A program made the translations under genes and the position numbers. The notes beneath the pieces were generated by a model that saw nothing but the letters and a program-made list of their open reading frames with translations, was not told where the DNA came from and ran no database searches. From contig JALOCJ010000007.1 of the NCBI GenBank assembly GCA_023227825.1, forward strand, positions 10,804 to 74,803: a DNA stretch of 64,000 bases, written 5' to 3'. This document shows, one piece after another, positions 16,439-21,896 of the stretch. Source of the stretch: Candidatus Cloacimonas sp. (GTDB lineage: Bacteria > Cloacimonadota > Cloacimonadia > Cloacimonadales > Cloacimonadaceae). How positions within the stretch are numbered: position 1 is the stretch's first letter; each line of letters opens with the position of its first letter.

Positions 16439-18853
16439 GTGATAACTATGAATGAAAAAATTGACCAATTATATTGTGATTCCAATGTTCAAATTTTATT
16501 TGATAAACTGGATAATACAATTACATATTATACACAGCATAGAAAATCGATTCCTCCTATTCATTTAGACGATAAATTACAATTTATTCAATTATACAAG
16601 GACAGTGGAGATCTTATTGTATCTTGTTCAAGCGGAACAAAGAAAATATATATTTGTAAAAGAAATCGCTTATACACTTTAAAACATGAATCTAACAACC
16701 TTGTTTATATCTTAGACCAAAGTTTTATTGTTGATGACACAGACCCTATTCCTAAAGTGTGGCAGATTTATGATGATAAATTAAAATTGTTAACCTATAA
16801 TAAATATCATATTAATAACGATTATTTGCCTTTAAGTGCATATACTATATATAAGGGCACTGACAATTGTAAATATTTAGTTACATCCCAAAGTAAAATC
16901 AAAATAGTAATTACCGGGTTTATGTTATTGAACTACAATTCGGAGACAATAAACCAAACAAATTCAACCATTATAAATGAATTATATTCAAAGATAAAAT
17001 ATGATAAGAAAACAACCAACAGCAGCAATACTCTTAAAATTCTATATTCTTATGATGACTCTGCATTTGAACTATATAGAACTATAAATGATTCTGAAAT
17101 TCTCATTGAAAAAATTGATAAACACGCGTGTACCCTTAAGAAAATCCAATTTATTAATGACAACTTTTTTATATCGTTGGATAGTTGCAGTAAATTAAAG
17201 ATATGGTTTGTAAATCAGGATACCTATTATGTATGTCAGACATTAACACCAGACGACTATTTCAACCATATCTATTATAATGATTTTATTATTTCTGAAA
17301 ACATGAAGGAGATTCAATTATTGGCGGATAACGATATTTACATCTATACCCTTGCATTAAACACTTATAAACCAAAACATAAAAATAATTTACTTATCTT
17401 TGATAGACACATATTCAAAACTACTATGGATACGACAAGTAGAGGAACAGATAGCGTTGGATTAACATCTAAAACTTTTGAACCAATCCCGAAAGATACG
17501 GATATATCCAATAACAAACAAAACGATATTAATAATGCAAAAGAGGAACTACAAACCATCTCTAAAGAACCCGAACAAGAGATAATTAGAGAAGTTATAC
17601 CCAGAAAAGGGGTCAATCAATCTTCTCATTTTGTTAAAAAACAAGCAAGAATATATATAGGCATTGATTTTGGAACAAGTAGAACAAAGGTATCTTTTAA
17701 CAATGAGACATCTGGGCATTATGAACCGTTAAATTTTAAAAGTATGATACCAGATAATTATAAACCAGAGAGTGATTTTGATTTATTTATTATCCCTTCT
17801 ATAGCAAAGAAAAGCGGAAATGCGATAAAATATGGTTATGAAACATACAATGCGAAAGGTATTGAGATAACAAACTTTAAACAGGCAATATTAAAGAGAA
17901 ATGTGAAAACAGAAACTATGCTGATTGCTGCAGGTTTTATTGCTTATGTAATGAAAATATCCCAAGACACAATTAGAAAACTAATACCTTTAACAGATAA
18001 TGATGAATTTATATTTTCTGTATGTCTTCCTGTTGAACAGATGAACAACAATGTTATTGTAGAAAGATTTCAAAGTATTTTGCTACTATCAAAAAAATTA
18101 CTTTTCTACGACTGCTTTAATGATATGCAGAAGATGAGTAAATGCGAGAAATTAAATAGTACACAGAAATTATCAAATAGCAATATTAGAATTGAGATAA
18201 TACCTGAATCTATTGCAGAAATACTTGATTTTTATGAAAGAAGAGCTAAAACTAAATTATATGCAATCTATGACTTTGGAGCTGGGACAACTGATCTTAC
18301 TATATTTTATGCAGACAAGTCATTAGGGAAAATTGATATCTTAGGAGCTAAAATTGTTTATAATGGTTATTCCTATATAGACAATTTAAAAGAGCAAAAC
18401 CGATATAATGAAGAAGAGGTGCTTAAATATTATTCAGATATATGGAATAAATTTAAGGATTCAAATGTATGGCAAAGGGTTAAGGGAAAAATTAGGGGTT
18501 TAGAAGCAATGAGATTTTTTTATGATTTAACAGTGTTTGGAGGAGGTGGAGGTTTTAATGATGATACTTTAAGATCTGTCTTTTCCAATATCCCTTTATA
18601 TGATGAACAGACAAATGAATATATTAAATCGCCAGATGGAATTATTAAATTAGAAGAACCACTTGATTGGGATAGTAATTTACCGCCCTATTTTAGATAT
18701 GCTGTATCCTTTGGTCTTACAAAGAAACCAGAAGAAACACTTATGAGATATAAATTGCCAAAAGATTGTAAAACTCGTGATGTATCTCCTAAAATTAAAG
18801 AACTCAACGAACCAGACGAAATAATTCCAGATCAGAATTGGTTAGGTAAATAA
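16439..18853 (+). CDS. Hsp70/actin-fold ATPase with an N-terminal WD40-like region
   Basis: IGIDFGTSRTK (phosphate 1), PESIA (connect 1), IYDFGAGTTDL (phosphate 2), VFGGGG (adenosine). No DnaK substrate-binding domain recognisable. Confidence 0.75.
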   Translation: MITMNEKIDQLYCDSNVQILFDKLDNTITYYTQHRKSIPPIHLDDKLQFIQLYKDSGDLIVSCSSGTKKIYICKRNRLYTLKHESNNLVYILDQSFIVDDTDPIPKVWQIYDDKLKLLTYNKYHINNDYLPLSAYTIYKGTDNCKYLVTSQSKIKIVITGFMLLNYNSETINQTNSTIINELYSKIKYDKKTTNSSNTLKILYSYDDSAFELYRTINDSEILIEKIDKHACTLKKIQFINDNFFISLDSCSKLKIWFVNQDTYYVCQTLTPDDYFNHIYYNDFIISENMKEIQLLADNDIYIYTLALNTYKPKHKNNLLIFDRHIFKTTMDTTSRGTDSVGLTSKTFEPIPKDTDISNNKQNDINNAKEELQTISKEPEQEIIREVIPRKGVNQSSHFVKKQARIYIGIDFGTSRTKVSFNNETSGHYEPLNFKSMIPDNYKPESDFDLFIIPSIAKKSGNAIKYGYETYNAKGIEITNFKQAILKRNVKTETMLIAAGFIAYVMKISQDTIRKLIPLTDNDEFIFSVCLPVEQMNNNVIVERFQSILLLSKKLLFYDCFNDMQKMSKCEKLNSTQKLSNSNIRIEIIPESIAEILDFYERRAKTKLYAIYDFGAGTTDLTIFYADKSLGKIDILGAKIVYNGYSYIDNLKEQNRYNEEEVLKYYSDIWNKFKDSNVWQRVKGKIRGLEAMRFFYDLTVFGGGGGFNDDTLRSVFSNIPLYDEQTNEYIKSPDGIIKLEEPLDWDSNLPPYFRYAVSFGLTKKPEETLMRYKLPKDCKTRDVSPKIKELNEPDEIIPDQNWLGK

Positions 18854-18857
18854 CATT

Positions 18858-21800: not shown

Positions 21801-21896
21801 TATGATAGTATAAAACAACGCCTTGAAGCTGAAAAAGAAATAGAATTTGAATTTCAAGATCCGGTTATAGGAGGTGTATTTGAAATAATTTCCTGA
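18858..21896 (+). CDS. SNF2-family helicase/translocase (RapA/DrmD-like)
   Basis: [55 protein letters not shown]; N-terminal Tudor/SH3-like segment. Confidence 0.9.
   Translation: [1012 protein letters not shown]

Follow-up and report, generated by a model that had tools for sequence, protein, structure and literature searches.

SNF2 motors that resemble Escherichia coli RapA (HepA), the RNA-polymerase-associated Swi2/Snf2 ATPase, recur in several prokaryotic defense systems, where they are represented by DrmD in class 1 DISARM, BrxHII in BREX type 3, ArmA in ARMADA, and IetH in IetHAS. BrxHII, RapA, and related defense helicases share an architecture in which a Tudor domain precedes the Swi2/Snf2 motor, a degenerate restriction endonuclease domain (iREase), and an alpha/beta domain (PMC12839542). 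RapA-like SNF2 helicases are required for defense in ARMADA (PMC12458937) and in IetHAS (PMC13069673), and IetH provides a precedent for DrmD-like helicases being added to other systems (PMC13069673). Hsp70-like NTPases have also been placed in conflict systems as switches or binders, among them CnuD in CoCoNuT (PMC11090510), the HSP70 proteins of GTPase-centric systems (PMC7159879), and further NTPase switches, HSP70-like domains included (10.64898/2026.10.19.760177). Here, we describe a cassette in which these two kinds of protein are encoded side by side. It lies in a 64,000-nucleotide stretch of a Candidatus Cloacimonas sp. genome (GCA_023227825.1, contig JALOCJ010000007.1, positions 10,804 to 74,803), which we call the window, and it consists of gene A, encoding an Hsp70-like ATPase, and gene B, encoding a RapA-like SNF2 protein. 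An earlier note on this DNA had proposed that the pair is an unnamed defense module, an interpretation that our work partly supports, as far as sequence analysis goes.

The two genes are co-oriented on the forward strand and lie 4 bp apart, just as the earlier note had described them: the open reading frame of gene A (16439-18853) closes with TAA at 18851-18853 and is followed by the 4 nt CATT and then by the ATG of gene B (18858-21896). This arrangement is conserved well beyond the window. Starting from gene A and its distant homologues, we reached 22 loci, and each of them carries a full-length counterpart of gene B (26-59% identity to gene B) immediately beside the ATPase gene; all-against-all clustering of the neighboring genes in these loci returned no third conserved gene. 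The pair was found in Cloacimonadota, a metagenome-assembled genome (MAG) of a methanosarcinaceal archaeon (Methanosarcinaceae), Deltaproteobacteria, Synergistota (Aminivibrio), Lentisphaerota (Victivallales), Cyanobacteriota, and Alpha- and Gammaproteobacteria, with Arenicellales, Mesorhizobium, Devosia, Paracoccaceae, Rhodospirillales, and Desulfocapsaceae among the finer groups. The ATPase gene comes first in Cloacimonadota and cyanobacteria, and the SNF2 gene comes first elsewhere.

We also approached the pairing from the opposite side, by fetching 80 loci on SNF2 similarity and scoring them against the partner profile. An ATPase gene adjoined the SNF2 gene in 13 of the 15 loci scoring at least 700 bits and in none of the 65 lower-scoring loci, two ASKHA matches of ~30 bits being left uncounted; about 20 of those 65 encode full-length RapA-like proteins and yet have no adjacent ATPase. 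The two proteins have also diverged together, with their distance matrices correlating at r = 0.976 (0.94 in the distant subset), a value equaled in none of 2000 Mantel permutations. Finally, a maximum-likelihood tree built from 54 RapA-like SNF2 proteins of full length places every one of the 31 partnered proteins on one side of a single branch (Shimodaira-Hasegawa-like approximate likelihood-ratio test, SH-aLRT, 96), so that the partnered state changes once on the tree, compared to 17.7 changes expected under shuffling. From these sequence comparisons we conclude that the pairing of the ATPase with the SNF2 protein is not due to chance.

Several individual loci near the edges of this distribution deserve mention. 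The SNF2 protein of an Anaerolineaceae MAG (L065, 1154-4594) branches as sister to the partnered clade, and its 6.5-kb contig carries no ATPase gene, which may mean either that the partner was lost or that this lineage preserves the condition preceding the partnership. A decayed copy of the cassette is present in the same genus as the window (L012, G014:C37, 4350-9553), where the SNF2 gene is split in three (residues 1-461, 481-608, and 692-1011) and the ATPase protein, at 665 aa, has a different and shorter N-terminal region. We also considered whether the copy in genome G010, read as a 589-aa open reading frame, is a variant without the N-terminal domain of gene A, and rejected this: gene A runs into the contig end there, and the G010 SNF2 protein is essentially identical to that of locus L004, whose ATPase partner is 854 aa long and does have the N-terminal propeller described below.

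Gene B (18858..21896, forward strand) encodes a 1012-aa protein with matches to Pfam SNF2-rel_dom (PF00176, 84.3 bits against a cut-off of 24.9), Helicase_C (PF00271, 74.7 bits against 23.5), and ResIII, which places it in the SNF2 family. Its motor core (residues ~103-625; 19164..20732, forward strand) retains motifs I, II, III, and VI, located as DEVGLGKT at 124, DEAH at 230, TATP at 259, and a fourth motif at 588, and these are invariant across 23 partner proteins, so that the complete set of SNF2 motifs reported in the earlier note is indeed there. The core is preceded by a small N-terminal beta-barrel (residues ~5-50; 18870..19007, forward strand) with five strands at 7-50, which is Tudor/SH3-like as in RapA and BrxHII. 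In the predicted secondary structure it is followed by C-terminal alpha+beta domains (~695-890) and then by a hairpin and a strand pair (together 20940..21896, forward strand), which the AlphaFold2 model (predicted local distance difference test score, pLDDT, 81; predicted template modeling score, pTM, 0.77) resolves as a helical hairpin of ~95 residues (895-991) and a short strand pair (996-1011).

When we compared this model to known structures with Foldseek, the whole-fold match, and the best in the PDB, was E. coli RapA (8spg, E 9.8e-39; 6bog, E 6e-38; 8t0l, E 2.5e-36), over ~1000 columns at a template modeling (TM) score of ~0.5-0.6. The full-length alignment to RapA takes in the N-terminus; eukaryotic remodelers match the motor core only, at E ~1e-18. 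The likeness to RapA is one of predicted fold, however, and gene B is set apart by a sequence identity of 17-18%, a patchy and accessory distribution, the ~95-residue hairpin, and an obligatory ATPase partner. Gene B is likewise comparable to DrmD, BrxHII, ArmA, and IetH in being a RapA-like SNF2 protein of ~1000 aa with a Tudor-like barrel and C-terminal alpha+beta domains. In contrast to the systems that contain those helicases, the cassette lacks a methyltransferase, a YprA/DUF1998 helicase, and a PLD nuclease, and the constant partner of its SNF2 protein is the Hsp70-like ATPase. An active nuclease in the C-terminal domains of gene B is unlikely, because no conserved D/E-x-K pattern is found there; the only columns of these domains that are invariant among the 23 partners are H794, G834, and E873. 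One might speculate that the helical hairpin at 895-991 is the docking site for the gene A product.

Gene A (16448..18853, forward strand) encodes 801 aa if translation begins with the ATG at 16448 and 804 aa if it begins with the GTG at 16439. The ATG, which is preceded by GGAG, appears to be the likelier start, and the database cluster of the protein is also 801 aa long. No Pfam, NCBIfam, or PADLOC family matched the protein above threshold, and we therefore describe it from an AlphaFold2 model built on 56 homologues (mean pLDDT 87). The model opens with an all-beta domain (residues 8-326; 16460..17416, forward strand) of ~27 strands at pLDDT >90, for which Foldseek returned beta-propellers (e.g., 3fgb, 6iyy, and 1ri6). 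Judging by the model, this domain may be a degenerate WD40-like propeller with a seven-blade-like arrangement and could serve as a putative sensor or adaptor. No Pfam WD40 family matched gene A itself; the same position is occupied by a canonical WD40 propeller in relatives at 25-28% identity (one, from locus L022, reaches E 7.8e-45 to 2ymu), and Pfam WD40 families match 5-8 members of the gene A family. The propeller evolves faster than the ATPase domain, with 32% versus 51% identity to homologues that are ~40% identical overall. Between the two lies a disordered linker (residues ~335-398; 17441..17632, forward strand) with pLDDT <50 over 340-398 and only 8-16% identity to the same ~40%-identical homologues.

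The remainder of gene A is a Hsp70-type (ASKHA) nucleotide-binding domain (NBD; residues ~404-790; 17648..18808, forward strand), recognized by both fold and motifs. The top Foldseek matches of this part are DnaK/Hsp70 NBDs (5obv, E 1.4e-10, probability 1.00), and the ATPase motifs claimed by the earlier note are found as GIDFGTS at 408, IIPES at 587, YDFGAGTTD at 611, and FGGGGGF at 700. A close-family profile aligned IIPES...YDFGAGTTD to NEPTAA...DLGGGTFD of mortalin/DnaK (PDB, E 0.007 over 49 residues). Nine residues are invariant in the 56 homologues (D410, G412, K417, K481, E590, D612, G614, G616, and T617), and they correspond to the phosphate-1, catalytic Lys/Glu, and phosphate-2 residues of Hsp70; the equivalences of E590, D612, and T617 come from the profile alignment to mortalin/DnaK, and the remaining ones were assigned by inspection. 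Given that the Hsp70 catalytic residues are invariant across these homologues, the gene A ATPase is probably active. The protein has the fold of the Hsp70-type domain and the catalytic residues of its phosphate-1, phosphate-2, and adenosine motifs, and it lacks the substrate-binding domain (SBD, a beta-sandwich with a helical lid), whose absence the earlier note had also pointed out: in the model, the NBD reaches to about residue 790 of the 804, leaving ~15 residues after the ATPase fold.

At the level of family models, gene A has no match to HSP70 (PF00012) at E <= 0.1, below the sequence threshold of that family, and among the 56 family members Pfam matched FtsA in 15 and HSP70 in 9 (E <= 0.01), with MreB matching weakly. 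Most members outside Cloacimonadota are 450-650 aa long with only a short N-terminal region, and the cyanobacterial ones have a different extension, which indicates that the N-terminal domain of this Hsp70-like protein is variable across lineages. A word-index search with the 56-sequence profile recovered only close Cloacimonadota relatives and one TPR-Hsp70 protein, and it provides no estimate of the size of the family.

Hsp70-type NBDs in predicted defense operons are also known from CnuD/CnuCD (CoCoNuT type III) and from the HSP70 proteins of GTPase-centric systems, although those proteins accompany McrB-like or TRAFAC GTPases, and CnuD, whose ATPase motifs are degenerate, retains an SBD. 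Gene A, in contrast, has no SBD, keeps all of its catalytic residues, is fused to a propeller, and is partnered with an SNF2 motor. The sole defense-library model that detected the ATPase family was protein B of PADLOC PDC-M61, which matched 45 of the 56 homologues at E <= 1e-3 (best 8e-14). For gene A, this match had an E value of 0.0012 over 26 residues, covers only the phosphate-2 region (600-625), and represents a remote similarity; short-form ATPase partners from three phyla did not reach E 1e-40 against the same model, and no PDC-M61 protein was among the 25 best PADLOC matches of gene B. We thus did not adopt membership in PDC-M61, the similarity being remote and confined to the ATPase domain. 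A further parallel is found in the eukaryotic Snf2 remodelers with actin/Arp subunits (SWI/SNF and INO80), which likewise join an SNF2 motor to an ASKHA-fold partner, and Sth1-Arp7-Arp9 (6vz4) was among the fold matches of gene B. This is an analogy that does not imply common descent, since the partner here is Hsp70-like and not actin-like, and we identified no HSA helix. The earlier note recognized no named system made of just this pair, and neither did we: no PADLOC, NCBIfam, or Pfam model names gene A, and full-text searches of the literature found no paper describing or naming an Hsp70-like/SNF2 pair. As far as we have checked, the pair is an unnamed module, a new architecture around a known kind of defense helicase.

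With moderate confidence, we favor the reading that this self-contained, horizontally acquired two-gene cassette acts in conflict with invading DNA, whether phage or plasmid. We infer both the defense function and the mechanism, and an anti-phage module is credible on the evidence of the genes and their surroundings. The gene A product would be the sensor-switch of such a module, its N-terminal domain, which varies from a degenerate WD40-like propeller here to canonical WD40 or other domains elsewhere, binding an invader-derived protein or nucleoprotein cue. Binding of the cue would lead to an ATP-dependent conformational change through the Hsp70-type NBD, which in turn would recruit or release the gene B product, a RapA-like SNF2 double-strand DNA translocase. 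That motor could then strip or stall complexes engaged in transcription or replication on the invading DNA, in the way that RapA acts on stalled RNA polymerase. Because no domain of a nuclease or a methylase is seen in either protein, the interference would occur by remodeling, possibly with help from restriction systems encoded elsewhere in the cell. The window has no adjacent nuclease or methylase gene, in agreement with what the earlier note reported. A bolder proposal, which we think rather improbable when taken as a whole, is that a Hsp70-type ATPase with interchangeable sensors (in Cloacimonadota, the WD40-like propeller) gates a RapA-like motor that evicts or stalls RNA polymerase or replisomes on the DNA of the invader, and that this constitutes a widespread immune module free of nuclease and methylase, the prokaryotic functional counterpart of the eukaryotic partnership between Snf2 remodelers and actin-fold subunits.

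In other genomes, the pair is frequently found in the context of a defense island. It lies beside a type I restriction-modification (R-M) system with RhuM and DUF3644 in L001, between an upstream AbiEii and a downstream EVE-McrB-like AAA protein in L018, and near a DEAD-MZB-HNH helicase in L016. In a Desulfocapsaceae MAG (L033, 789-13060), the order is BrxC (1708 bits), SNF2, ATPase, and PglX (1462 bits), an apparent BREX operon in which the pair may replace or supplement a BREX helicase. The pair follows a type I HsdR in L028, precedes a second SNF2 protein and a type IIG enzyme in L027, and has a TmtA-like protein nearby in L034 and a HEC-05-like protein in L025; type III R-M is also among the neighbors in other genomes. 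On a plasmid of Leptolyngbya sp. BL0902, the pair (annotated as 'hypothetical protein' and 'SNF2-related protein') lies between cas1d/cas2 of a type I-D CRISPR-Cas system and transposases.

A number of observations weigh against a defense function. The cassette contains no recognizable effector, be it a nuclease, a toxin, or a membrane protein. About half of the informative loci have defense-rich surroundings, but this tally was made without a matched background control, and both the window and G010 have housekeeping flanks with no defense island. In addition, tblastn with PglX/DrmMI-like queries found no methyltransferase in the 5-kb flanks of unpartnered RapA-like SNF2 clades. The same flanks contained a single YprA-like helicase when searched with YprA-like queries, and we make no claim that the unpartnered clades sit in DISARM/ARMADA-type operons.

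Alternatively, the pair may not be autonomous, acting instead as an accessory motor that boosts or regulates co-resident restriction-type systems (type I R-M, BREX, or ARMADA-like) in the manner of BrxHII, DrmD, and IetH. We regard this as fairly unlikely, while recognizing that it would account for the position of the pair inside the BREX operon of L033, after HsdR in L028, before the SNF2 protein and type IIG enzyme in L027, and by the type I R-M system in L001. It would also fit the precedent of IetH and the presence in this genome, on another contig, of a type III R-M system and of a locus resembling ARMADA type I. However, there is no R-M gene within reach in the window, nor in the G010 locus up to its contig end. 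The partner systems vary from locus to locus with no third conserved gene, a pattern that fits equally well with an independent cassette landing in defense islands.

Another possibility is that the cassette serves a mobile element, through maintenance of a plasmid or island, anti-defense, or remodeling of transcription for the element; the insertion site bears on both this and the favored reading. That the pair is more AT-rich than its flanks and inserted between housekeeping loci had been remarked in the earlier note, and both points held up. The G+C content is 0.27-0.30 across 16000-22000 versus 0.36-0.40 on either side, and for the two genes themselves the values are 0.28-0.29 versus 0.37-0.40 in the flanks. 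The upstream neighbors are the fumarase alpha and beta genes (14184-15542), and a DUF6754 membrane-protein operon begins downstream at 22280. We compared this site to that of three same-genus genomes with the same fumarase (78-87% identity), including the one-contig genome G019, and found it empty in all of them: the distance from the fumarase gene to the conserved promoter region of the DUF6754 operon is 6.65 kb in the window, ~95 bp in G019, ~172 bp in G012, and ~1.85 kb, consisting of repeats only, in G007. Synteny in blastn breaks at 15529 against both G019 and G012 on the fumarase side, and on the DUF6754 side at 22181 (G019) or 22187 (G012). This delimits an inserted island at 15530..22180, absent from these same-genus genomes, in which a leader rich in repeats precedes the gene pair and a tail of 280 bp follows it. 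The empty sites and the composition show that the cassette is an insertion between housekeeping genes, one that was acquired horizontally. Carriers are rare and patchily distributed: the cassette is present in 3 of the 21 genomes of the genus and, across the phylum, in 12 of 232 (~5%), which belong to 5 of 66 genera. This distribution marks the cassette as mobile and accessory. The copy in the window represents a variant from Cloacimonadota in which the ATPase is fused to a propeller and the order of the genes is reversed, and it offers a clean empty-site comparison.

Low G+C and horizontal acquisition are what one would expect of a gene pair in the service of a mobile element. The same is true of the copies on cyanobacterial plasmids beside transposases and of the fact that ASKHA ATPases include plasmid-segregation proteins, with members of the gene A family weakly matching FtsA and MreB models. 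Nevertheless, we consider a role of this kind distinctly unlikely. The island in the window has no mobility genes, the pair has no match in 50,697 phage records, the best structural matches of the ATPase are Hsp70 NBDs rather than ParM or actin, and the neighbors in other genomes are mainly host defense systems.

The ends of the island and the DNA around the two genes show several further features. Scans of the window for open reading frames and repeats, among others, revealed no integrase, tRNA, target-site duplication, or terminator at the island edges. A tandem repeat with a 98-bp unit (15796..16077; ~2.5-3 copies; Tandem Repeats Finder period 98, 96% matches) is probably native to this variable intergenic spot and not part of the cassette, because its core AGCCCCnnnGGGCGACACAAT occurs as a single copy in the empty site of G019; related copies are present in G007, and the repeat seems to be spread through intergenic DNA across the genus. 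Directly 3' of the fumarase gene, a motif of ~48 nt (TTTTAGAAACAAGGATTACAGGA...) is present in three copies at 15575-15760, and G012 has a different short-repeat array (GAGATGGCGA...) in the same spot; given these differing arrays, the intergenic site is hypervariable. The Rfam scan of the island gave a single match, at 16134-16179 (forward strand), to Acido-Lenti-1 RNA, and nothing above the gathering score (26.1 bits against 37; E 0.009). This match sits in an element at 16081-16222 of which several copies occur in the corresponding intergenic region of G007. At the other end, an 11-bp tandem repeat, GCTGCCCGAAC, is present in 3.9 copies at 22088-22130, just upstream of a TTGACATAAA(A/T)GGG box that is conserved in three genomes before the DUF6754 operon.

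The earlier note had also credited the pair with its own consensus promoter. A TTGACA-17 nt-TATAAA site, read by eye, is present at 16326..16354 on the forward strand, ~90 nt ahead of the point where gene A begins; our promoter scan did not list it because its rule demands that the -10 element end in T. Sites resembling sigma-70 promoters are, however, no commoner in this AT-rich DNA than in shuffled sequence (46 found versus 40.4 +/- 6.9 expected), so the site stands as a plausible promoter of gene A and no more firmly than that.

Readings in which gene B has a function that is already well described fit the data poorly. If gene B were a housekeeping RapA-type factor that recycles RNA polymerase, with gene A as its dedicated chaperone, the whole-fold similarity to RapA (E ~1e-38) and a match to NCBIfam RapA (NF003426) over residues 2-806 would be expected. 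That match scores 230.5 bits, far under the cut-off of 576, and a pair found in ~5% of the genomes of its phylum and in 3 of 21 in its genus, with a foreign composition and with its site empty in close relatives, makes a housekeeping role very improbable. We find it scarcely plausible that gene B is the orphan DrmD of a decayed class 1 DISARM system with gene A as an unrelated neighbor, even though its best PADLOC match is the DrmD model PDLC02623, end to end (E 1.7e-141), and its best NCBIfam match is DISARM_DrmD (NF038317), since the latter reaches only 354.4 bits against a cut-off of 610, no DrmA, DrmB, DrmC, or DrmMI gene is adjacent, gene A co-diverges with gene B and stands beside it in all of the loci to which gene A led us, and the partnered SNF2 proteins are a separate clade. 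We accordingly rejected membership in DISARM, and the pair, with no third conserved gene, is not the remnant of a larger known system.

The DUF1998/MZB (PF09369) genes of this genome are restricted to another contig, C15, where they occur in two loci, one of which has its own SNF2 gene. That locus (L013, 4097-16711) encodes a YprA/DruE-like helicase (1727 aa, DUF1998), an SNF2 protein (953 aa), and a PglX/DrmMI-like methyltransferase (1409 aa), in a gene order that matches ARMADA type I as described (PMC12458937). Its SNF2 protein is DpdE/DrmD-like (PADLOC DpdE, 773 bits) and shares 24% identity with gene B. In the second locus (L014, 1861-8130), a type III restriction enzyme (PADLOC REase_III, 653 bits) adjoins an 858-aa DEAD/MZB helicase that is SngC/BrxHI-like.

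The match to PDLC02623 also has a bearing on annotation. Partnered SNF2 proteins from other phyla score up to 972 bits over their full length against this 'DrmD' model (L031), whereas the ARMADA-like SNF2 protein of this genome scores 172 bits, which suggests that PDLC02623 probably represents the ATPase-partnered clade; PADLOC-type annotation would therefore label such genes as orphan DrmD. Since the labels that annotation pipelines give are 'DrmD' or 'SNF2-related protein' for gene B and 'hypothetical protein' for gene A, the system is invisible in current defense censuses.

RapA-like SNF2 motors are common to DISARM, BREX type 3, ARMADA, and IetHAS. With one partner and neither a methylase nor a nuclease, the cassette could offer the simplest system for studying what the motor does in defense, and cultivable carriers include Devosia rhodophyticola G2-5, Cupriavidus sp. 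YAF13, Shinella sp. PSBB067, Spirulina subsalsa FACHB-351, and Leptolyngbya sp. BL0902 (on a plasmid). If the favored reading of a cassette that acts against invading DNA is true, Hsp70-type ATPases would join STAND, AP-GTPase, and ParA proteins among the NTPase switches of immune effectors, and the sensor domains of these Hsp70-type switches would be swapped between lineages.

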